Notes under the pieces: model-generated | The model's database searches: none | What the model was told of the DNA's origin: nothing | The model's input: only the letters and a program-made list of their open reading frames with translations | Made by a program: the position numbers and the translations under genes | Shown: piece by piece, positions 1-8,312 of the stretch | Position numbering within the stretch: the stretch's first letter is position 1 | How the letters are laid out: every line of letters begins with the position of its first letter | IMG/VR virus record: IMGVR_UViG_3300014770_000037 | Coordinates: 1 to 8,312 of that record | From: a virus | Taxonomy: Duplodnaviria > Heunggongvirae > Uroviricota > Caudoviricetes | Direction: 5' to 3' (one strand) | Length of the DNA: 8,312 nucleotides

Positions 1-695
1 ATTGCACAAGGTTGGAACGATGAACAACTGATCGCTAACGCTGCTACAGGTGCTGCCGCTGGTGTAGGCGCTGCTACAGGTGCTGCCGCTGGTGTTACGC
101 CGATCGGACGTGCACCTTCAGGCATTGCAGGAGCCGCACCGAACACAGAGGCAGGAGCCGGACCGGAAATGATTTCTTCACCTGCATAAAGCAATTGCGC
201 CATTTCCATGTTGATATACACACCAGCCTGATTACCTGTACGACCGTTTGCAACAGATGATCCGCTGATACGGTAGTAATAACCTTTTTTCGCCAGATTT
301 TTATCAATAACTGGCTGGTACGCTGCGTTATAAACCGGACACGCGTCAATAGCCACGTTGCGTGAGAAACCAATTACCCAGTGACCAGCATAACCAGTTT
401 TACTCGCATGTTTCGGGTCGTCACCGTTAATAATTTTCCATGCGAAAGTAGGTTGTTGTGGTTCGCCATTCACATAGTGTGAATTAGCCGCTCGCATAAT
501 CGCCTGGAATACCGCACCCAGTTCACCTTGTTCTTCCCACCAGTTCGCCGCTGTTTTAGGAAACGCCAGACCAACCCACCAGTTGTGTTTTTCAGGTGCT
601 AACGGTTTGTTTTCGTGGTCATGGGTGTTGATATCGAAAAAAGAACCGCCAACCAGACGACCAACCGGAGTTACAAAAGATTCTTTCTGTGCCAT
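1..695 (-). CDS. putative phage ssDNA-binding protein (DUF2815-like), partial; C-terminal Pro/Ala-rich repeat linker; 3' end beyond window start
   Basis: Minus-strand ATG at 695-693 (cat on + strand) preceded by AAGAAGG (rc of 700-706), 15 nt after the upstream nuclease stop. The frame stays open for 231 codons to the window edge with no stop. Translation begins MAQKESFVTPVGRLVGGSFFDINTHDHENKPLAPEKHNWWVGLAFPK and ends in a linker TPAAAPVAAPTPAAAPVAA. Family call rests on the N-terminal pattern and on the position immediately downstream of a DUF2800 nuclease, the canonical DUF2800-DUF2815 pairing. Not in the ORF track because no stop lies inside the window. Confidence 0.6.
   Translation of the reverse strand, partial: MAQKESFVTPVGRLVGGSFFDINTHDHENKPLAPEKHNWWVGLAFPKTAANWWEEQGELGAVFQAIMRAANSHYVNGEPQQPTFAWKIINGDDPKHASKTGYAGHWVIGFSRNVAIDACPVYNAAYQPVIDKNLAKKGYYYRISGSSVANGRTGNQAGVYINMEMAQLLYAGEEIISGPAPASVFGAAPAMPEGARPIGVTPAAAPVAAPTPAAAPVAALAISCSSFQPCA
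39..98. repeat. 30-bp in-frame tandem duplication (2 units, 27/30 identical) encoding a Pro/Ala-rich linker
   Basis: Units 39-68 (cgctgctacaggtgctgccgctggtgtagg) and 69-98 (cgctgctacaggtgctgccgctggtgttac) read directly from the sequence. The period of 30 nt is 10 codons, so the reading frame is kept. On the minus strand it encodes roughly TPAAAPVAAP twice. Confidence 0.9.
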
Positions 696-710
696 GTTAT
701 TAACCTTCTT

Positions 711-1856
711 TTAAAGTGGACGTGCGCCAGTCGGCATCGTCACGGGTTTATTAAAAACAGATTCTGCCAGTGTGCTGTGACCTTTACGCGGGTCACTGTC
801 AGGTACTAAAACTGGCTGACCTTCTGGTTTTGTCGTACACATGTCAACAAGTGCCGGAGGCAGTGATTTTTCCAGTGTTGACAATGGTTTTAATTTACGT
901 TCGTACAATGTTTCAGGGTTTACACCAAACATGGGTGCAGCACCGATCAGTTTTCCTTCGTCCGTAAGCTGACGTCGGGTTTGTTTTGTTGCAAGTTTAA
1001 AACCCGGTAAAACTTTACCCATACGAACAAAATGTAACCCCTGAGTATGTAACGCTGTTTTTGCTTCAGAAGAACGCGTATACAGTTCTTCAAGAAGTGC
1101 CAGACGACGCGCTACTTCTTCTGGCGTAAGTGATGGTGGTGCATCAAGAACAGTAGCCAATTCTAAAACCCTCTCATACATCGCCGGACACATACCACGC
1201 GCCGGACAGTAATGACAATGACTACCAACATTTAAAGGTGCGTCTGGTTTATGTGCTTCGTTAAACCCGTGTTTAAATCGTTCAGCCCATTCCATCAATG
1301 TTGCCAGGTTAAACTCCCATCGTCTTACAGGTCCGAGTGGGTGATAAGCCCGTGGCTGAACAATTGTGAACACAACGCGCTTAACAGTGTCGATGCAACG
1401 TTGGTCCAGTGCATAATAGACCCCCTGTGAGTTATCAACTGCGTCAACTGCAACATGACCGTATTTATAATCCCATACATAAAGCGTATCAGTATTAAAG
1501 TCATACCAGCGATAATCACAGGTTCCGTACTGACCGGGTAACAACCAGTCAATGTGAATGCGAACTTCTGAAAACAGCGGATCAAGTTTCGCACCAACTG
1601 AAAGAACATCTGCTATAAAGTCATCCGCGTAAATGTGCATGTCTTCAGTAACCTGAACACCGTTAGGAGCAATACACGGCATTAATGGCTGTTTACCTTT
1701 AATCTTCTGTTCTAACACCCAGTGCCCGGCTGTACCTTCTTCAGCACTGGGTGATGATGGTTCTACATAATCAATCCGCTGTGACAGTTGAACGCTACCC
1801 GGACAAGCTAACCAACGTTTTGATCCACTGGCACTAAAGGTAGCGTGACTTGTCAT
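711..1856 (-). CDS. Cas4-like PD-(D/E)xK nuclease, DUF2800 family, with predicted 4-Cys Fe-S cluster
   Basis: 381-aa ORF. N-terminus MTSHATFSASGSKRWLACPGS matches the DUF2800 hallmark start (HA..SAS...RW..CPGS). PD-(D/E)xK-like core around VWDYKYGH. One N-terminal Cys (LACPGS) plus C-terminal C-x2-C-x5-C (GSHCHYCPARGMCPA, about nt 1187-1217) is the Cas4/AddB-type cysteine arrangement. Its ATG shares one nucleotide with the upstream gene's stop (TGATG at 1858-1854). Confidence 0.85.
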   Translation of the reverse strand: MTSHATFSASGSKRWLACPGSVQLSQRIDYVEPSSPSAEEGTAGHWVLEQKIKGKQPLMPCIAPNGVQVTEDMHIYADDFIADVLSVGAKLDPLFSEVRIHIDWLLPGQYGTCDYRWYDFNTDTLYVWDYKYGHVAVDAVDNSQGVYYALDQRCIDTVKRVVFTIVQPRAYHPLGPVRRWEFNLATLMEWAERFKHGFNEAHKPDAPLNVGSHCHYCPARGMCPAMYERVLELATVLDAPPSLTPEEVARRLALLEELYTRSSEAKTALHTQGLHFVRMGKVLPGFKLATKQTRRQLTDEGKLIGAAPMFGVNPETLYERKLKPLSTLEKSLPPALVDMCTTKPEGQPVLVPDSDPRKGHSTLAESVFNKPVTMPTGARPL

Positions 1857-2626
1857 CAGAATGCCCCACCCATTTGTTTAACAGATTCAGCCTGACCAAC
1901 AATGTTTTCAGCATCAGCCGGGGCCGCGTTAATGCGTTCAATCAGTTCGATGATAGATTTCAGTTTTACTGGGTCGTCAATCTGCATCACGTTCTGAGTT
2001 TCATACAGTCCCATGATTCGCTGACTTAATGGCGCGGCACGGTCACCCGTAATTTGTCCAAACATCTGCATTAGTGCTGACTGAAGAACCTGGGTATTAT
2101 AAACTTTAGCTGGATCCGTGGTTACAGGTTGCTCGACAGGCGCGACTGGTGCAGCCGGTGCTGCTGGTACAACTGGAGCTACCGGAGCGGCAGGAACCGC
2201 TGGAGCAGGATCAACAGGTGCTACATAACCCGGTGCAAGTTCTGCAGGTCCGGTATAACGCCCTGCTTCAACTGCTTCAGCAATAAGTTCACGTTTAACA
2301 CCGTCAACAAACGCTTCATCCAGTTTTTTCTTTTGACGCCACAGACCATCACCTTTGTTCAGGGATTTACTGTCAGTGTGGATACGTGGATCGTGGCGCA
2401 AACCCCATTTGTCGAACTCTTCAGTGCTGGTTTCGTTATCGTCAATATCTTCAGTTGTTGCTGATACAACAGGCAGTGATTCAGCAACGACTGTCACGGT
2501 TTCTTTAGTGATACCATCATCCTGAGCAGTCATGAGTGGTGCAGCACCAGTCGCAATAGCATTTGCCAGATTGTTGATCGCAGTTTCCAGACCCGGAGCA
2601 GTTACAAGTAATTTAACTTCGAACAT
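1856..2626 (-). CDS. hypothetical protein, two domains joined by a Pro/Ala-rich linker; function unknown
   Basis: 256-aa ORF, ATG at 2626-2624 with SD AAGAGGA about 8 nt upstream (rc of about 2634-2640). First gene of the leftward operon, directly downstream of a predicted promoter. Acidic segment TTEDIDDNETSTEEFDKWGLRHD, then linker PAPAVPAAPVAPVVPAAPAAPVAPV (residues about 126-166, nt 2129-2251), then a C-terminal domain of about 90 aa. No motif I can assign to a family. Confidence 0.75.
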   Translation of the reverse strand: MFEVKLLVTAPGLETAINNLANAIATGAAPLMTAQDDGITKETVTVVAESLPVVSATTEDIDDNETSTEEFDKWGLRHDPRIHTDSKSLNKGDGLWRQKKKLDEAFVDGVKRELIAEAVEAGRYTGPAELAPGYVAPVDPAPAVPAAPVAPVVPAAPAAPVAPVEQPVTTDPAKVYNTQVLQSALMQMFGQITGDRAAPLSQRIMGLYETQNVMQIDDPVKLKSIIELIERINAAPADAENIVGQAESVKQMGGAF

Positions 2627-2658
2627 TACGTTTTCCTCTTGTTGTTTGGTTATCGCTA

Positions 2659-2697
2659 ACTTTAAAAGGTGTTGTGTAATCTGTCAAGAATTATTTT
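2659..2697 (-). promoter_or_regulatory. putative sigma70-type promoter P1 for the leftward operon, with A/T-rich UP-like element
   Basis: On the minus strand: AAAATAATTC-TTGACA (-35, rc of 2682-2687), 17-nt spacer, TAAAGT (-10, rc of 2659-2664). Predicted start lies about 25 nt upstream of the ATG at 2626. The 15-mer GTCAAGAATTATTTT (2683-2697) recurs at 2747-2761 and, reverse-complemented, at 8054-8068. Confidence 0.45.
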
Positions 2698-2721
2698 TAC
2701 ACTCGCCTTTCGTTGATGCAG

Positions 2722-2761
2722 ATGTTAGAGGAATAAGTTGCAATACGTCAAGAACTATTTT
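2722..2761 (-). promoter_or_regulatory. possible second (distal) leftward promoter P2 carrying a near-identical UP/-35 element
   Basis: GTCAAGAACTATTTT at 2747-2761 is 14/15 identical to 2683-2697. On the minus strand it reads AAAATAGTTC-TTGACG (-35, rc of 2746-2751), 18-nt spacer, TAACAT (rc of 2722-2727). The -10 is weaker than in P1. Confidence 0.3.
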
Positions 2762-2766
2762 AAACT
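2738..2766 (+). promoter_or_regulatory. candidate rightward promoter for the helicase operon, overlapping P2
   Basis: TTGCAA (2738-2743), 17-nt spacer, TAAACT (2761-2766), about 37 nt upstream of the helicase GTG at 2803. Hexamer match only; it overlaps the oppositely oriented P2 element. Confidence 0.3.
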
Positions 2767-2802
2767 TTTTTCACGATTCGATATTAACTGAAGGAAAGAT
2801 AC

Positions 2803-4470
2803 GTGAGTCAACAACCACTTCGTCACTATCAACAAGATGCCGTTAACAACGTGCGCCAGGCATGGTCGAACGGTGCTGATGACGTGATTCTTGTACTTCC
2901 CACGGGTGCAGGAAAGACCCGAGCGCTTGCAGAACTGGTAAAATCCGACGGTGTAAAAGTCATCCAGGCACACCGTAAAGAACTGGTTAGTCAAATCGCA
3001 ATGGCTGTTGCTCGCCAGGGATTACCACACAGATTTATAGCGCAAAAAGATACTGTTAAGTTTGCAACTAATCAGCAGATGAAAACGCTTGGTTACAGTA
3101 CCTATTCCCCCGGCGCTGACATCGTTATTACCAGTTCACAAACGTTAAGAACAAAACAGTACGAACGATGGTACAACGACGTGTCTCTTGTATTCAGCGA
3201 TGAAGCGCATCACCTGGTACGTGGCACACAGTGGGGAGACTGCCGGGAAAAATTCCCTAACGCTAAAGGTCTGGGTGTTACAGCTACACCGATCCGTGCT
3301 GACGGTAAAGGCTTGGGTCGTCATGCGTCAGGTTACGCAGATCAGATGATCATCGGTCCATCAATGCGTGAGTTAATCAGCCAACAACACCTGGCTGATT
3401 ATCGCCTGATCATGGCTGAAACAGACCTGGAATTAACTGCAGAAATGATTTCCCATACTACGGGTGATTACAAACCCTCTGCGTTAAAAAAAGCGATGGA
3501 AGATTCAAACATCGTTGGTGATACCGTCAGTACGTGGAAAACGTACGCAGACGGTTTACTCACTGTTGTGTTTACGTGTGACGTAGATTCTGCTGAAGCA
3601 CTCGCAAAAGAATTTCGCGATGCTGGCATTCCTGCAGAGGCGATCAGCTCACGAAACAGCAATCAGGAACGAGCGGATATTCTGGAACGTTTTGAACGAC
3701 GTAAAACACTCGTGCTATGTAACAACGATTTATTCGGTGAAGGGTACGATTGCCCGGCGATGGAATGCGCTGTAATGGACCGTCCAACAGAATCTTACTC
3801 TTTGTTTGTACAACAGATGGGTCGACCATTGCGTTTCAAACCCGGTAAAAAAGCACTGATTATTGATAAAGTCGGTAATGTTCGTCGATTTCTGGCCCGT
3901 GGTTTTCCACTTCCCGATCAGCACTACAACTGGTCTTTAGATGACCGTGATCGTCGTTCATCTAACAGCAGTGGGAACAGTAATACAACATGTACAAACA
4001 AGGGTGATCCTGATAATGGTATTCCACCGTGTCTGAAGCCTTATCCGTCTGGTCTTCCGTGCTGCCCGTATTGTGGTCATATTCCTGAAAAAGCCGAACG
4101 CTCAGGCCCGGATCGTGTAGAAGGTAATTTACGTGAACTGACACCTGAAGAATTGGAAGAATTACGCCGGGCAGTGGTGATAATCGACCGTGACCCTGTT
4201 GCAGTAAAAGAACAAATGTTAAACGCTGGTGCACCCCCTATTGCAGCTTACAGTGCAATGAAAAACATTCAGGCAATGAACGATGCACAGCGTAAATTAC
4301 GCAGTATGATCACCACATGGGCGGGTATTCAGCGTGATAAAGGTATACCCGTTGATGACGCTTACAAGATGTTTTACAGGGTGTTTGGTGTTGATGTACT
4401 TAGCGCTCAGGGGTTACGTACTCGTGAAGCTAATGAACTCGCCGCAAGGGTTGCAAGTTCATTAATCTGA
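2803..4470 (+). CDS. superfamily 2 DEAH-type DNA helicase with C-terminal Cys-rich (zinc-ribbon-like) insert
   Basis: 555-aa ORF with GTG start at 2803 and SD AAGGAAAG at 2792-2799. N-terminal LRHYQQDAV (Q-motif-like), Walker A LPTGAGKT (nt 2902-2919), motif II FSDEAHH (DEAH at 3199-3210), motif III TATP, motif VI QQMGRPLR (about 3811-3834). Ser/Asn-rich linker followed by C-x12-C-x9-CC-x2-C-x-H (nt 3991-4080). Confidence 0.9.
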   Translation: MSQQPLRHYQQDAVNNVRQAWSNGADDVILVLPTGAGKTRALAELVKSDGVKVIQAHRKELVSQIAMAVARQGLPHRFIAQKDTVKFATNQQMKTLGYSTYSPGADIVITSSQTLRTKQYERWYNDVSLVFSDEAHHLVRGTQWGDCREKFPNAKGLGVTATPIRADGKGLGRHASGYADQMIIGPSMRELISQQHLADYRLIMAETDLELTAEMISHTTGDYKPSALKKAMEDSNIVGDTVSTWKTYADGLLTVVFTCDVDSAEALAKEFRDAGIPAEAISSRNSNQERADILERFERRKTLVLCNNDLFGEGYDCPAMECAVMDRPTESYSLFVQQMGRPLRFKPGKKALIIDKVGNVRRFLARGFPLPDQHYNWSLDDRDRRSSNSSGNSNTTCTNKGDPDNGIPPCLKPYPSGLPCCPYCGHIPEKAERSGPDRVEGNLRELTPEELEELRRAVVIIDRDPVAVKEQMLNAGAPPIAAYSAMKNIQAMNDAQRKLRSMITTWAGIQRDKGIPVDDAYKMFYRVFGVDVLSAQGLRTREANELAARVASSLI

Positions 4471-4511
4471 TGGTAATCTGCATAGAAATATTTTAAACGT
4501 AAGGAACTGTA

Positions 4512-5018
4512 ATGCGTGATTTGATGGTTGACATTGAGACGTGTGGTACTAAACCAGGTTGTGCAGTGCTGTCAATTGGCGCTGTTTACTTTGATCGTCA
4601 GGGTAACATTGGTGAAACGTTTTACGCATCAATGGGTTTTAATGCGCTCGCTTACGGTCACACAGACCCTGACACTATGAAGTGGTGGTCGCAGCAGTCA
4701 GAACAAGCACAAAAAGATGCTTTTGGTGGTACTGCCGATCCTGTTCAGGTTGCTAAAGATTTTGCCAAATTCATCTGGCACGATGCTAAACCGTGGGGCA
4801 ATGGTTCCACATTCGATATCACTATTCTGGAAGCATGGTTTAATGCGATTGGTGTTCGTTGCCCGTGGAAGTTCTGGAACGTCCGTGATGTTCGTACCGC
4901 TGTTGATTTGCTGGGTATTAACCCGAAAGAATTTACCCGTGACGGTACTTACCACAATGCGTTAGACGACTGTTTACACCAGATTAAATATCTTACTAGT
5001 GGGACTAAAACATTATGA
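4512..5018 (+). CDS. DnaQ-like DEDDh 3'-5' exonuclease
   Basis: 168-aa ORF, SD AGGA at 4501-4504, 7 nt before the ATG. Exo I-like MVDIETCG (D at 4530-4532, E at 4536-4538), Exo II-like GNGSTFDI, Exo III-like YHNALDD (H-x4-D). Stop overlaps the next gene's start (ATGA at 5015-5018). Confidence 0.85.
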   Translation: MRDLMVDIETCGTKPGCAVLSIGAVYFDRQGNIGETFYASMGFNALAYGHTDPDTMKWWSQQSEQAQKDAFGGTADPVQVAKDFAKFIWHDAKPWGNGSTFDITILEAWFNAIGVRCPWKFWNVRDVRTAVDLLGINPKEFTRDGTYHNALDDCLHQIKYLTSGTKTL

Positions 5019-5506
5019 CAACGCTTGAACAATGGGCGATTCGTCACGGTATTAGTCAGATGGCGTTGTACGAGTTATACGCGCTTTATCAGCCTGATGG
5101 AACACCACACGAAGACGGTGTAAGTGAAAGCGCCACCAGTAAAGAGTGTGAACTGATTGCGGCACGCGCAGGGCAACGTATCTGGCGTAATAACTCAGGT
5201 GCTCTGAAAAACGAAAAAGGAATGATGGTTCGTTATGGTCTTGGTAACACCAGTGCGAAAATCAACGCTGTTATGAAGTCAAGCGACTACATCGGCATTA
5301 AAACCAAAATCGTTACACCGGATATGATCGGTTCGAAAGTGGGTGTCTTTATTGCTGCCGAAATGAAACGCCCTGACTGGCACATGACCCCGAGTGACAG
5401 ACGTGCACAAGCACAGGCCACTTTCGGTGCGATTGTTGAAAACGCAGGTGGTGAATTTCGTTTCATCACTCATCCTTCACAATTTGAAAAATGGATTAAA
5501 CAATGA
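5015..5506 (+). CDS. VRR-NUC domain nuclease (PD-(D/E)xK superfamily)
   Basis: 163-aa ORF. VRR-NUC-like pattern RIWRNNSGAL ... VRYGLG ... SSDYIGI ... GVFIAAEMKRP, giving the D ... E-x-K catalytic arrangement. Translationally coupled on both sides (ATGA overlaps at 5015-5018 and 5503-5506). Confidence 0.85.
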   Translation: MTTLEQWAIRHGISQMALYELYALYQPDGTPHEDGVSESATSKECELIAARAGQRIWRNNSGALKNEKGMMVRYGLGNTSAKINAVMKSSDYIGIKTKIVTPDMIGSKVGVFIAAEMKRPDWHMTPSDRRAQAQATFGAIVENAGGEFRFITHPSQFEKWIKQ

Positions 5507-5676
5507 ATACTGAACGCATTAAACGTCTGCAAAAACTGATTGATAACCACGGTATTGAGGCTGTTGCTAAACGTCTGAACGTTACTGAAATTCATGTTAA
5601 ACGTAATCTGCTTACCGGGCGATCTGCTATCAACCTGGTCAAACTGATGGCTGCTGAACGTCAGTTCGGAGCGTAA
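5503..5676 (+). CDS. small 57-aa protein, putative helix-turn-helix DNA-binding protein (not in ORF track, below 60 aa)
   Basis: ATG at 5503 overlaps the VRR-NUC stop; TAA at 5674-5676 lies 3 nt before the primase ATG at 5680, so it exactly fills the gap between two confident genes with no stop in frame. Translation MNTERIKRLQKLIDNHGIEAVAKRLNVTEIHVKRNLLTGRSAINLVKLMAAERQFGA. The segment GIEAVAKRLNVTEIHVKRNL has a helix-turn-helix-like pattern. Only a weak SD (TGGA, 7 nt upstream). Confidence 0.5.
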   Translation: MNTERIKRLQKLIDNHGIEAVAKRLNVTEIHVKRNLLTGRSAINLVKLMAAERQFGA

Positions 5677-5679
5677 ATT

Positions 5680-8034
5680 ATGAAAGGGTTACTGAACCGT
5701 AAACAGTGGGTCATGTGGCGACTTGAGACAGTTGCCGATCGTCCAAAACCAACGAAAGTACCATACAGCCCGGTACACGGTTATAAAGCCAGTACCACTA
5801 ACCCTAACGACTGGTCTGACTATCACACCGCGTTAGGTATGGCGCAAATGTACGGCATGTCTGGTGTTGGTTTTGTATTCACAGAAAATGACCCTTATTT
5901 CTTTATTGATGTCGATAACTGTCTGGTAGATCAGGCAACAGCCACATGGTCACCACTGGCGCATGAATTCGTAAACCGTTTTCCAAATGCTTACACTGAA
6001 GTCAGCCAGTCAGGAACAGGTTTGCATATCATCTGTGCTTATACCAGCATACCGGAAGGTTTTAACAGTCTGAACGACCAGAAAACCGGGCTGGAAATGT
6101 ACTGGCGTGATCGTTTCGTCGCGATGACGCTCACGGGTAATGGCGATGTTGATATTGATTATACCCAGGGCATTCATGATTCTATTGCCCGGTATGGTCG
6201 TATCCGTTCAGACCGTTCCGCACGCTGGACAACAGCACCCTGTGATGACTGGTCAGGTCCGGCAGACGATGATGAACTGATTAAAATGGCGTTAAATTCG
6301 TCCAGTGCTGCTTCAGTATTTGGTAATAAAGCGTCATTTGCAGATCTGTGGAATGCAAACGTTGAACGCCTGTCTGTGTCATACCCCAGCGACCAGGGAA
6401 AAGACTACAATGCATCTGCCGCTGATGCTGCCCTGTGCTCACACCTTGCGTTCTGGACAGGGAAAGATTGCGAACGTATTGAACGTTTGTTTAACCGTTC
6501 TGGGCTGGTTCGTGGTAAATGGACAGATCGTCAGGATTACCGTGAAAACACGATTTTGGGCGCTGTGGAACGTTGTGATACTGTGTATCGTAGTCAACCG
6601 ACAATGACACCAGAACTGATGAAAGCAGTCACACCAGCGCCTACCGTCGTTCCTAATGGTGGAACACCTGCGTACATGAGTGTGAAACCCGGTGAAGGTG
6701 CATATGGTTCAAACCATACGGTTAACGCATCCACGTTCGTTAATAACTATTATCCAAACAACACATTGATTTTTGTCCAGCAACAGCCGTACCGGTTCAA
6801 CGGTCGCGTGTGGGAACGTGTGAGTGAAGATGAACTGAAACATCAGATATCTATGGCAATGCTCGCCAGCGAACCAAAAGCTGACGTAATTAACGGTACG
6901 TACAAGGTTTTGTCGTATTTATTCACACGCGCTGATCGTGAGCTTGGAACATGGCCCGGCGTTGATGTATCACACTATATTGTTTGTCAGAACGGGATAC
7001 TGGATGTACACACGGGTAAATGTGATGCACATAACCCTGATTTCTTTACGACCAGTATTTTACCGTATAGCTACGATCCGTTTGCCCGTGCGCCAGCATT
7101 TGAACAGTTTCTTAATACAACTCTGGAAGGTGATCAGGAACGTATTGCACTGTTGCAGGAATGGTTGGGTTACATGCTTGTCAACTCGTACGACTATCAG
7201 AAAGCGATGTTGTTGATTGGTGCGCCACGTTCCGGTAAAGGTACGATTGGTCGCATCATTCAGGCACTGGTAGGTGATGAAGCGTATGCAGGGATCACAC
7301 TGGAGGGTTTAGCCAGTGATGCGGTACTTGAAACTGTGCTGGATAAATCTGTGCTGTTTATTGGTGATGCTCACAGTGTGTCCGGGCCTGACCGCAACCG
7401 AATTCTGGACCGTTTCAAATCTATTACAGGTTGTGATGCGATTCCGGTTAATCGTAAGTATAAAGGTGCATGGAACGGTCGTTTACCTGGACGTATGACA
7501 CTGGCTGCTAACAACATACCTGCATTTGCTGATGATTCCGGTGCAATGGCTAACCGTTTGCTGATCCTGCCGTTCAACATTTCGTTCCTGGGTCGTGAAG
7601 ATACCACTCTGGAAGCACGACTGATGAAAGAACTACCGGGGATCTGTAACTGGGCGATTGAAGGTTTACAACGGTTACGTGCAAACGGACGGTTTACTGA
7701 ACCAAAAGCAAGTCTGGAAGAACGTCAGGAAATTATGGATCAACAATCACCACTTAGAAGTTTTATCAGAGATTGTTGCGAATTGGTATCTGATGGTGAG
7801 GTGCACACTGAAGAACTCTATGGTCGTTATCGTCTCTGGAAAACACAGGAAGGTGGTCCAGCAATGACTAAAACTGCATTTAGTCGGGCGTTTAAATCCA
7901 CCCTTCGTGGTAAAGTGAAAAAAGACGTTGTTAATATAAATAACGTTCGACTAAACGGTTTCAGGGGTATTCGTCTTCTCCCTTTTCAGTCAACAGCTAA
8001 TGTAGTGCCTTTTCCACCTGCGAGTAATAGTTAG
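5680..8034 (+). CDS. bifunctional DNA primase-polymerase (prim-pol/AEP-type N-terminus, PriCT-like middle) fused to a C-terminal P-loop NTPase/helicase domain (P4/D5-type or DUF5906-like)
   Basis: 784-aa ORF, SD GGAG at 5667-5670. N-terminal FFIDVDN (D-x-D at 5908-5916) and SGTGLHIIC are typical of prim-pol domains. The middle region DDDELIKMALNSSSAASVFGNKASFADLWNAN resembles primase C-terminal (PriCT) domains. C-terminal Walker A LLIGAPRSGKGT (nt 7219-7245) and Walker B-like VLFIGDAH. Confidence 0.9.
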   Translation: MKGLLNRKQWVMWRLETVADRPKPTKVPYSPVHGYKASTTNPNDWSDYHTALGMAQMYGMSGVGFVFTENDPYFFIDVDNCLVDQATATWSPLAHEFVNRFPNAYTEVSQSGTGLHIICAYTSIPEGFNSLNDQKTGLEMYWRDRFVAMTLTGNGDVDIDYTQGIHDSIARYGRIRSDRSARWTTAPCDDWSGPADDDELIKMALNSSSAASVFGNKASFADLWNANVERLSVSYPSDQGKDYNASAADAALCSHLAFWTGKDCERIERLFNRSGLVRGKWTDRQDYRENTILGAVERCDTVYRSQPTMTPELMKAVTPAPTVVPNGGTPAYMSVKPGEGAYGSNHTVNASTFVNNYYPNNTLIFVQQQPYRFNGRVWERVSEDELKHQISMAMLASEPKADVINGTYKVLSYLFTRADRELGTWPGVDVSHYIVCQNGILDVHTGKCDAHNPDFFTTSILPYSYDPFARAPAFEQFLNTTLEGDQERIALLQEWLGYMLVNSYDYQKAMLLIGAPRSGKGTIGRIIQALVGDEAYAGITLEGLASDAVLETVLDKSVLFIGDAHSVSGPDRNRILDRFKSITGCDAIPVNRKYKGAWNGRLPGRMTLAANNIPAFADDSGAMANRLLILPFNISFLGREDTTLEARLMKELPGICNWAIEGLQRLRANGRFTEPKASLEERQEIMDQQSPLRSFIRDCCELVSDGEVHTEELYGRYRLWKTQEGGPAMTKTAFSRAFKSTLRGKVKKDVVNINNVRLNGFRGIRLLPFQSTANVVPFPPASNS

Positions 8035-8053
8035 TCATTGCACAAGGATGGGT

Positions 8054-8093
8054 AAAATAATTCTTGACGAATTACAGATGTGTGCGCTATAGT
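8054..8093 (+). promoter_or_regulatory. strong sigma70-type promoter with UP-like A-tract; begins a new rightward transcription unit
   Basis: AAAATAATTC-TTGACG (-35 at 8064-8069), 18-nt spacer, TATAGT (-10 at 8088-8093). Followed by SD AAGGAG (8111-8116) and ATG at 8125. The upstream 15 nt (8054-8068) is the exact reverse complement of 2683-2697. Confidence 0.5.
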
Positions 8094-8124
8094 CTGTACA
8101 TCAAGTGAACAAGGAGTGATTGTT

Positions 8125-8312
8125 ATGAAAAACATATTTGACCGTTTAATTACTGTTATTGTATTTCTTGTATCCGTAACACTCGCGTCTTGTATTGTCG
8201 GACTAATGACCCGTGGTAATCATGCGGAAACACCGTGGTGGTTTCTGGCGGGTCTTGGATTATTAGCGGCTGCGTGCATAACGGTCTTCTTTTTTGATTA
8301 CAGCACCGAATT
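8125..8312 (+). CDS. small membrane protein (two predicted transmembrane helices), partial; 3' end beyond window
   Basis: ATG at 8125 with SD AAGGAG 8 nt upstream; open for 62 codons to the window end. Translation MKNIFDRLITVIVFLVSVTLASCIVGLMTRGNHAETPWWFLAGLGLLAAACITVFFFDYSTE shows two hydrophobic stretches separated by a short polar loop. Not in the ORF track because no stop lies in the window. Confidence 0.6.
   Translation, partial: MKNIFDRLITVIVFLVSVTLASCIVGLMTRGNHAETPWWFLAGLGLLAAACITVFFFDYSTE

Follow-up and report, generated by a model that had tools for sequence, protein, structure and literature searches.

What is encoded by the 174-nt gap between the nuclease and primase genes of a 9NA-like phage, and if it is a gene, what does its product do? 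The question arose for an 8,312-nt stretch of DNA (virus record IMGVR_UViG_3300014770_000037, positions 1 to 8,312; hereafter the window), in which a sequence-only reading had pointed to a 57-aa open reading frame (ORF) with helix-turn-helix (HTH) character and had proposed a small regulator, an origin-binding factor or a primase-loading factor. As judged from its substitution pattern, the ORF is a genuine, conserved and translated phage gene. Its product is predicted to adopt a lambda-repressor/Cro (XRE-type) helix-turn-helix fold, and from this fold and its charge it very probably binds DNA. The function that we tentatively favour, at a little less than an even chance, is that of a small Cro-like transcription regulator made along with the replication proteins.

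The ORF lies exactly where it had been placed, between the nuclease and primase genes on the plus strand, with an ATG at 5503 and a TAA stop at 5674-5676; its 57 codons specify the product MNTERIKRLQKLIDNHGIEAVAKRLNVTEIHVKRNLLTGRSAINLVKLMAAERQFGA. Both junctions had been described as coupled. At the upstream junction the start codon indeed overlaps the TGA of the 163-aa nuclease gene in an ATGA tetranucleotide, but downstream 3 nt (ATT) separate the stop from the primase ATG at 5680, giving a close-coupled arrangement and not an overlap. The HTH ORF is the sole plus-strand frame that spans the 174-nt gap. The broader claim that it is the only open frame there did not hold, since one antisense frame is also open across the 174 nt in the window; it contains a stop codon in six of the seven relatives compared. 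By our own estimate with a uniform codon model, a 57-codon open frame has a chance expectation of a few per cent. Because such a frame alone is weak evidence, the case for a gene rests on conservation.

A product of the same length and in the same frame was found by tblastn in all 23 related phage records (84-98% identity), and the ORF is also intact in more distant Proteus, Morganella and Vibrio phages. Frame-disrupting indels, which had been named as a sign that would speak against a gene, were seen in none of the relatives, and homologues can be detected down to about 30% identity with synteny kept. An ungapped comparison of eight genomes gave 8, 5 and 34 variable columns at codon positions 1, 2 and 3, respectively. 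The pairwise ratio of nonsynonymous to synonymous substitution rates (dN/dS, NG86) was 0.03-0.16 for informative pairs, excluding two near-identical pairs with 1-2 substitutions, and these values fall within the range of the flanking nuclease and primase genes. Purifying selection was strong along the whole ORF, beyond its 3' end alone. This is how coding sequence changes, and it differs from what a spacer or an origin would show.

The opposite reading, a chance open frame in a spacer or a non-coding origin, can draw on the shortness of the ORF (57 codons) and on its having been passed over by some annotators: it is unannotated in the records of FSL SP-062 and Morganella phage Henu15. This is outweighed by the dN/dS values, the codon-position pattern, the retention of frame, length and synteny, and the lack of RNA signals. 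A search of the ORF region against Rfam gave no match and its folding energy equalled that of shuffled sequence (z = -0.15), on which grounds an RNA element in place of a gene was rejected. The ideas that the ORF contains iterons of an origin or some conserved cis element were also rejected, because the 3' ribosome-binding-site block alone stands out. With a probability close to nil, the non-gene reading is excluded and effectively refuted. The ORF is not unlisted either, as had been stated; it is already a coding sequence (CDS) in most GenBank relatives, namely 9NA (gp73), Bas82 (Bas82_0073), Carvaje (gp067), KP13-27, PDP46 and PJ16. The label is "hypothetical protein" in the first three and "DNA binding protein" in PDP46 and PJ16.

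The 57-aa protein has a mass of 6.5 kDa and a pI of about 11, with 11 lysine and arginine residues versus 5 aspartate and glutamate residues. AlphaFold2, run with a 27-sequence alignment, produced a compact four-helix domain (helices 3-16, 18-24, 29-38 and 45-56) with a mean predicted local distance difference test score (pLDDT) of 80. Helix 2, the turn and helix 3 are predicted to pack on helices 1 and 4 in a compact, all-alpha XRE-type fold. The segment flagged earlier as HTH-like, GIEAVAKRLNVTEIHVKRNL (residues 17-36), coincides in the model with helix 2, the turn and helix 3 (the recognition helix). When the model was compared with PDB and BFVD using Foldseek, its fold neighbours were XRE/Cro domains, including C proteins and the HipB, HigA and MqsA antitoxins. 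The HTH fold anticipated from the sequence is therefore supported by AlphaFold2 and the fold matches, that is, by predicted structure. The XRE fold is assigned by prediction; membership of HTH_3 is not demonstrable by sequence.

No significant match to the window protein came from Pfam, PHROGs, NCBIfam, PADLOC or the PDB sequences. Matches to DUF5771 and phrog_31521 at E about 0.09 were dismissed as noise, and DUF5791 matches in 16 of 53 relatives (best 5e-4) were uninformative. Pfam HTH_3 (PF01381) was matched by four of the 53 family members (best 2.5e-4) and HTH_31 by three, and some members match PHROG "transcriptional regulator/repressor" families (best 1.1e-5). Word-indexed searches yielded 22 and then 40 clusters among 5.8 billion, and an exhaustive hidden Markov model search of 1.84 billion representatives gave 121 at E <= 1e-3, 14 of them at E <= 1e-10. 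Long proteins from the exhaustive search were considered as natural HTH-primase fusions and rejected, as they look like repeat artefacts with multiple short matching stretches.

Most members of the family are 75-90 aa long and consist of a C-terminal HTH domain and an N-terminal stretch of 20-25 residues. The N-terminal stretch is missing from the 57-aa form found in 9NA-like, Proteus, Morganella and 'Flyfo' phages. A 91-aa form occurs in the Sasha-group genomes PJ16 (L004:3390-3665), 536P12 and cluster P0011, and also at locus L031. Its 34 extra N-terminal residues, which stem from a 102-nt difference directly after the nuclease stop, align to the N-terminal region of the family. For this natural variant AlphaFold2 gave the same core with a pLDDT of about 90, together with a long N-terminal helix of low confidence; in family members of 75-91 aa the extension prolongs helix 1. 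Because the 91-aa form arises within otherwise about 94%-identical genes, the N-terminal helix appears to be dispensable or recently lost. The conserved core consists of R8, L9, G17, V21, I43, L48 and E52, and homologues at 30-50% identity keep both these residues and the predicted fold. The enterobacterial subfamily has in addition an invariant block, H31..N35-L-L-T-G-x-S-x-I-N44, which lies on the recognition helix and past its end.

We scanned the gene context in 35 sequences (the window and loci from GenBank phages, Logan, ENA, JGI and IMG/VR), 31 of which, from about a dozen lineages, carry the HTH gene. The order nuclease, HTH, D5_N/DUF5906 primase-helicase was present in 31 of 31 loci, in enterobacterial phages as well as in phages of Vibrio and Pseudoalteromonas. 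What surrounds the triad varies: 9NA-like phages have a helicase and an exonuclease, several marine contigs RdgC, and Vibrio phages an exonuclease and a Gp2.5-like single-stranded DNA-binding protein (SSB). None of the 31 loci has a gene inserted between nuclease and HTH gene; the two abut or overlap in 30 and are 51 nt apart in one. Adjacency of HTH gene and primase is found in most loci, and the genes that can lie between them are a DUF2591 gene (PM-CJR), a 111-aa gene (L022, JGI), an HNH endonuclease gene (KPN_H2) or a set of four genes (Vibrio phage 1.088.O). The nuclease family is represented in 263 phage records, the primase in 419 and the HTH protein in 40, and many nuclease-family members occur without the HTH gene. 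In two relatives that have the nuclease and the primase but no member of the HTH family, Jedunavirus (gp25, 8e-7) and MSW-3 (gp58, 8.7e-4), a small TetR_N-only HTH protein of 92-94 aa is encoded directly upstream of the primase. The small genes immediately 5' of the primase in Pseudomonas phage Kakheti25 (gp37) and Agrobacterium phage 7-7-1 (gp092) seem to encode distant XRE-type relatives. HNH_3 homing-endonuclease-like genes were noticed beside the HTH/primase junction in Klebsiella phage phi_KPN_H2 (L012:1678-2241) and Jedunavirus KLPPOU148 (L025:3904-4509), the latter in a 570-nt stretch without an annotated CDS.

The sense codons of the HTH ORF end in a 26-nt block that shows no variation, even at synonymous sites, among eight genomes with 77-96% identity elsewhere, and the most conserved 45-nt segment (5637-5681) of the 3.8 kb compared encloses it. 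The minimum-free-energy fold contains a 6-bp hairpin, CUGAAC-GUCA-GUUCGG (5654-5669), the 3' arm of which holds the first two bases of the primase Shine-Dalgarno sequence GGAG (5668-5671). We infer that the block is a translational-coupling element. The HTH protein would then be made by translational coupling from the rightward replication operon of helicase, exonuclease, nuclease, HTH and primase genes, and ribosomes terminating on the HTH ORF would open the primase ribosome-binding site. Because the conserved hairpin overlaps this site, primase translation probably needs ribosomes that finish the HTH ORF. The invariant block, together with the tight packing of a short ORF between two genes, would also be explained if the ORF were a translated leader that opens the hairpin while the peptide itself has little or no function. 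We consider this very improbable, since the amino-acid sequence is under strong purifying selection over its whole length, distant homologues retain the fold and the core residues, and the model is a confident compact domain. As a separate observation, the 26-nt block persists when the gene that follows is an HNH gene in place of the primase.

A possible target for a DNA-binding protein was found in a 23-nt promoter element with three copies in the window versus none expected, each of which holds the -35 hexamer of a sigma-70-like promoter. Across the whole genome of Bas82 (L038+L039), blocks of small genes are headed by the 23-26-nt TTTAAAATAATTCTTGAC(R)(R)ATT(R)CA, of which there are about 15 copies. 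Conservation is much lower in the -10 region than in the near-invariant -35 box and its flanks, a contrast that points to a factor-binding site overlying the -35 box. In perfect copies the -35 box is the centre of a dyad, TAATTC-N5-GAATTA. The core TT[GT]AC-N2-[AT]TT[AG]CA, for which we estimate a chance rate of about once per 700 kb per strand, is present at every HTH locus with the NLLTGxSxIN block (9NA-like, Proteus, Morganella, Flyfo and L022 from JGI). Ten marine loci and six loci without an HTH family member lack the core, and five marine-relative loci showed no repeated operator-like motifs. A consensus promoter scan of the divergent intergenic region detected two leftward sigma-70-like promoters and no rightward promoter for the helicase-to-primase operon. 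By eye, a weaker rightward TTGCAA-N17-TAAACT (about 2739-2767; TTGCAA-N17-TATGAT in 9NA) overlaps the second leftward element, and because of this overlap the divergent promoters may be mutually exclusive.

The likeliest activity of the HTH protein would be site-specific DNA binding through helix 3 (residues 29-38). The best candidate target in 9NA-like phages would be the 23-nt TAAAATAATTCTTGAC(R)(R)ATT(R)CA, which overlaps the -35 box of about 15 promoters and the three window copies of which bracket the replication operon; that it serves the HTH protein as operator is a conjecture. Phage XRE proteins that are small and single-domain regulate transcription in the great majority of cases (Cro, Ner, C proteins, Aca). 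A Cro-like regulator is ranked first because of this prior and because the conserved promoter element is a plausible target. Several results weigh against it. A role linked to replication would account at least equally well for the strict order of nuclease, HTH and primase genes amid varying flanks. The HTH profile search that had been proposed as a check gave no match for the window protein at E <= 1 in Pfam, PHROGs or NCBIfam, and hhalign against a small, hand-made XRE alignment gave a probability of 3.6-6% (P = 0.006-0.012) in the correct register. Foldseek E-values were non-significant (>= 0.69), which is usual for so short a query. The 57-aa form ends after helix 4; it has neither a fifth helix nor the N-terminal helix, elements through which other members could dimerise. 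As for the candidate operator, its dyad symmetry is partial and AT-rich, and its co-occurrence with the HTH protein, though suggestive, has phylogeny as a confounder. Vibrio phage 159E43-1b, which has a marine-type HTH protein, showed no dispersed conserved promoter element genome-wide. Because none was found there or in the marine relatives, the link between element and HTH protein cannot be generalised to the whole family. The same Vibrio phage genome (L040) has eleven tandem GATGAAT heptamers at 43032-43110, inside an annotated hypothetical CDS; a 7-nt period is unusual for coding sequence, and the repeats could mark an iteron-like region.

A role as replication accessory is possible, though less probable than regulation. 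The HTH protein would bind a site in the origin or replication module and recruit or modulate the D5/SF3-type primase-helicase, as a specificity or loading factor comparable in function to papillomavirus E2 for the E1 helicase or P4 Cnr for alpha, and not as a global transcription factor. It stays a serious rival because the synteny is independent of the flanks, in all 31 loci and about a dozen lineages, because translational coupling implies co-production with the primase, and because other small HTH proteins replace it upstream of the primase in Jedunavirus and MSW-3. The apparent distant relatives in Kakheti25 and 7-7-1 and the mid-operon position of the gene, with no promoter or operator adjoining, also favour it. 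On the other hand, the XRE fold is seldom used by replication initiators, and pure regulators such as lambda cII and Mu Ner also adjoin replication genes. Furthermore, as an analogy with P4 alpha suggests, the C-terminal region of the primase could supply origin binding; in or beside the ORF, neither iterons nor conserved non-coding elements were found other than the ribosome-binding-site block; and there is no homology to P4 Cnr. The HTH protein might instead be a partner of the VRR-NUC-like nuclease, acting as its DNA-targeting subunit, inhibitor or controller in the manner of an XRE-type antitoxin or C protein. Its linkage is indeed tightest with the nuclease, from which it is never separated by another gene, whereas insertions before the primase occur in PM-CJR, L022, KPN_H2 and Vibrio phage 1.088.O, and C proteins and antitoxins are among the structural neighbours. 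We nevertheless find such a partnership improbable, since far more phage records hold the nuclease family (263) than the HTH family (40) and many nucleases have no HTH partner, the gene order is the reverse of that in C-protein systems, no PADLOC or toxin signature was found, and the nuclease, with its weak Hjc and VRR-NUC similarity, looks like an ordinary replication or recombination enzyme.

A bolder form of the replication role, which we regard as doubtful, concerns the whole family of XRE-like proteins of about 57-90 aa. These would be dedicated DNA-specificity or loading subunits for phage D5/SF3-type primase-helicases, co-translated with the primase through hairpin gating and replaced by TetR_N-only proteins in other lineages. 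If true, this would provide a bacterial-virus counterpart of papillomavirus E2-E1 and define a three-gene nuclease-HTH-primase initiation cassette.

The 8.3-kb window itself is the replication module of a Sashavirus/Nonanavirus (9NA-like) siphophage (Table 1). Escherichia phage KarinMuster_Bas82 and the Salmonella phages Sasha, Sergei and Solent are about 96% identical to the window, 9NA and a group of Klebsiella phages about 78%; the source phage is a virulent 9NA/Sasha-like siphophage. The primase-helicase shares 27% identity with the helicase region of P4 alpha (E = 3e-20), and its region C-terminal to the helicase has a weak Pfam match to Pox_D5 (E = 0.036). The VRR-NUC label given earlier to the upstream gene is weakly borne out. 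Three homologues matched VRR-NUC (PF08774) below threshold (E = 0.0043-0.025, 15-17.5 bits, cut-off 23.8) and some GenBank homologues carry this annotation, but a Pfam search with the window protein gave no match. With faint phmmer matches to archaeal Hjc Holliday-junction resolvases (E ~0.7-0.9), the 163-aa protein looks like an ordinary replication or recombination enzyme. In PJ16, the slot of the helicase and exonuclease is occupied by an 892-aa gene (L004:182-2860), annotated 'type 1 site specific restriction modification protein' and the sole CDS from the divergent promoter region to the nuclease. Tandem repeats with a 30-nt period (CGCTGCTACAGGTGCTGCCGCTGGTGT...) lie within the Gp2.5-like SSB gene at 39-95 in the window and 38094-38370 in Bas82, which has about ten copies; the window begins inside the repeat array.

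Table 1. Positions of genes and sequence elements in the window
Feature	Position	Strand	Remarks
SSB, exonuclease and 256-aa protein genes		leftward	before the 176-nt divergent region
Divergent intergenic region	2627-2802		176 nt
Promoter element copy, AAAATAATTCTTGAC(R)(R)ATT(R)CA	2675-2697	-	-35 TTGACA, leftward
Second leftward promoter element copy	2739-2761	-	in divergent region
DEAD-box helicase gene	2803-4470	+	
Rv2179c-like 3'-5' exonuclease gene	4512-5018	+	
163-aa nuclease gene, VRR-NUC-like / PD-(D/E)xK-type	5015-5506	+	phrog_93 endonuclease match, 3.9e-22
ATGA start/stop overlap of HTH ORF and nuclease gene	5503-5506	+	from sequence
57-aa predicted HTH gene	5503-5676	+	orthologue of 9NA gp73 and Bas82_0073
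Predicted helix-turn-helix motif: helix 2 (residues 18-24), turn, recognition helix 3 (29-38)	5554-5616	+	AlphaFold2, XRE/Cro fold matches
26-nt invariant block, ATGGCTGCTGAACGTCAGTTCGGAGC	5647-5672	+	end of HTH ORF sense codons; from alignment
784-aa primase-helicase gene	5680-8034	+	Pfam: NrS-1-like helix-bundle domain, D5_N, DUF5906 SF3 helicase
Perfect promoter element copy, just downstream of primase	8054-8076	+	-35 TTGACG, -10 TATAGT, dyad TAATTC-N5-GAATTA

Replication and gene control in 9NA-like phages are little explored. The 2014 genome paper on 9NA described the lifestyle of these phages as unexplored and predicted functions for 17 of the 84 9NA genes. The gene studied here was already annotated, mostly without a function, and its fold is among the commonest in phages. 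New are the definition of the family, the invariant triad, the N-terminal truncation in the 9NA-like lineage, the hairpin at the ribosome-binding site and the candidate operator. One "hypothetical protein" thereby becomes a predicted DNA-binding protein with a defined family, a strict context, a candidate site and a putative translational-coupling device ahead of the primase. If the protein is a regulator, a candidate factor has been named for the uniform promoter element of 9NA-like phages; if it is a replication accessory, it would show how D5-type phage primase-helicases find their start site. Since the protein belongs to a very common structural class, the result would be useful but unsurprising either way.

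Comparison with known systems brings out both likenesses and differences. Cro/CI-type (XRE, HTH_3) regulators such as 434 Cro, the N-terminal domain of P22 c2 and Xfaso-1 Cro have five helices whereas the window protein has four, and it gives no significant profile match to them. Their genes lie at the immunity or early-promoter region, while the window gene is located mid-operon between nuclease and primase. Aca10 (PDB 7xi5) has 6% identity to the window protein. Aca genes lie downstream of acr genes and repress them; the neighbours of the HTH gene are instead the replication genes for nuclease and primase, and the PADLOC search was negative. In restriction-modification systems the C gene is upstream of the endonuclease gene with C-boxes at its 5' side, whereas the HTH gene is downstream of the nuclease gene and has beside it no methyltransferase gene and no intergenic space for C-boxes. 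Compared with XRE-type type II antitoxins (HigA, HipB, MqsA), the window pair overlaps in toxin-first order, but the partner, a VRR-NUC/Hjc-like replication nuclease, is frequently found where the HTH gene is missing, and the pair is always followed by the primase.

Other known systems were compared as well. The MuB N-terminal domain (PDB 2mqk) is a fused domain, whereas the window protein is separate, and sequence similarity between the two is not significant. The TetR_N-only proteins of Jedunavirus KLPPOU148 (gp25) and Edwardsiella phage MSW-3 (gp58) are, like the window protein, small and HTH-only; they occupy the same slot 5' of a homologous primase, in modules that also carry a homologous nuclease. 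They belong to another HTH family, PF00440, and are missed by the profile of the window HTH family. P4 Cnr (ORF106, DUF5375) is likewise encoded by a small gene immediately 5' of an SF3-type primase-helicase gene, that of alpha, whose helicase region is homologous to the window primase. Cnr modulates origin binding by alpha. It has no sequence or profile similarity to the HTH protein (hhalign probability 0.3%), and although not homologous, P4 Cnr would be its nearest functional precedent as a replication accessory.

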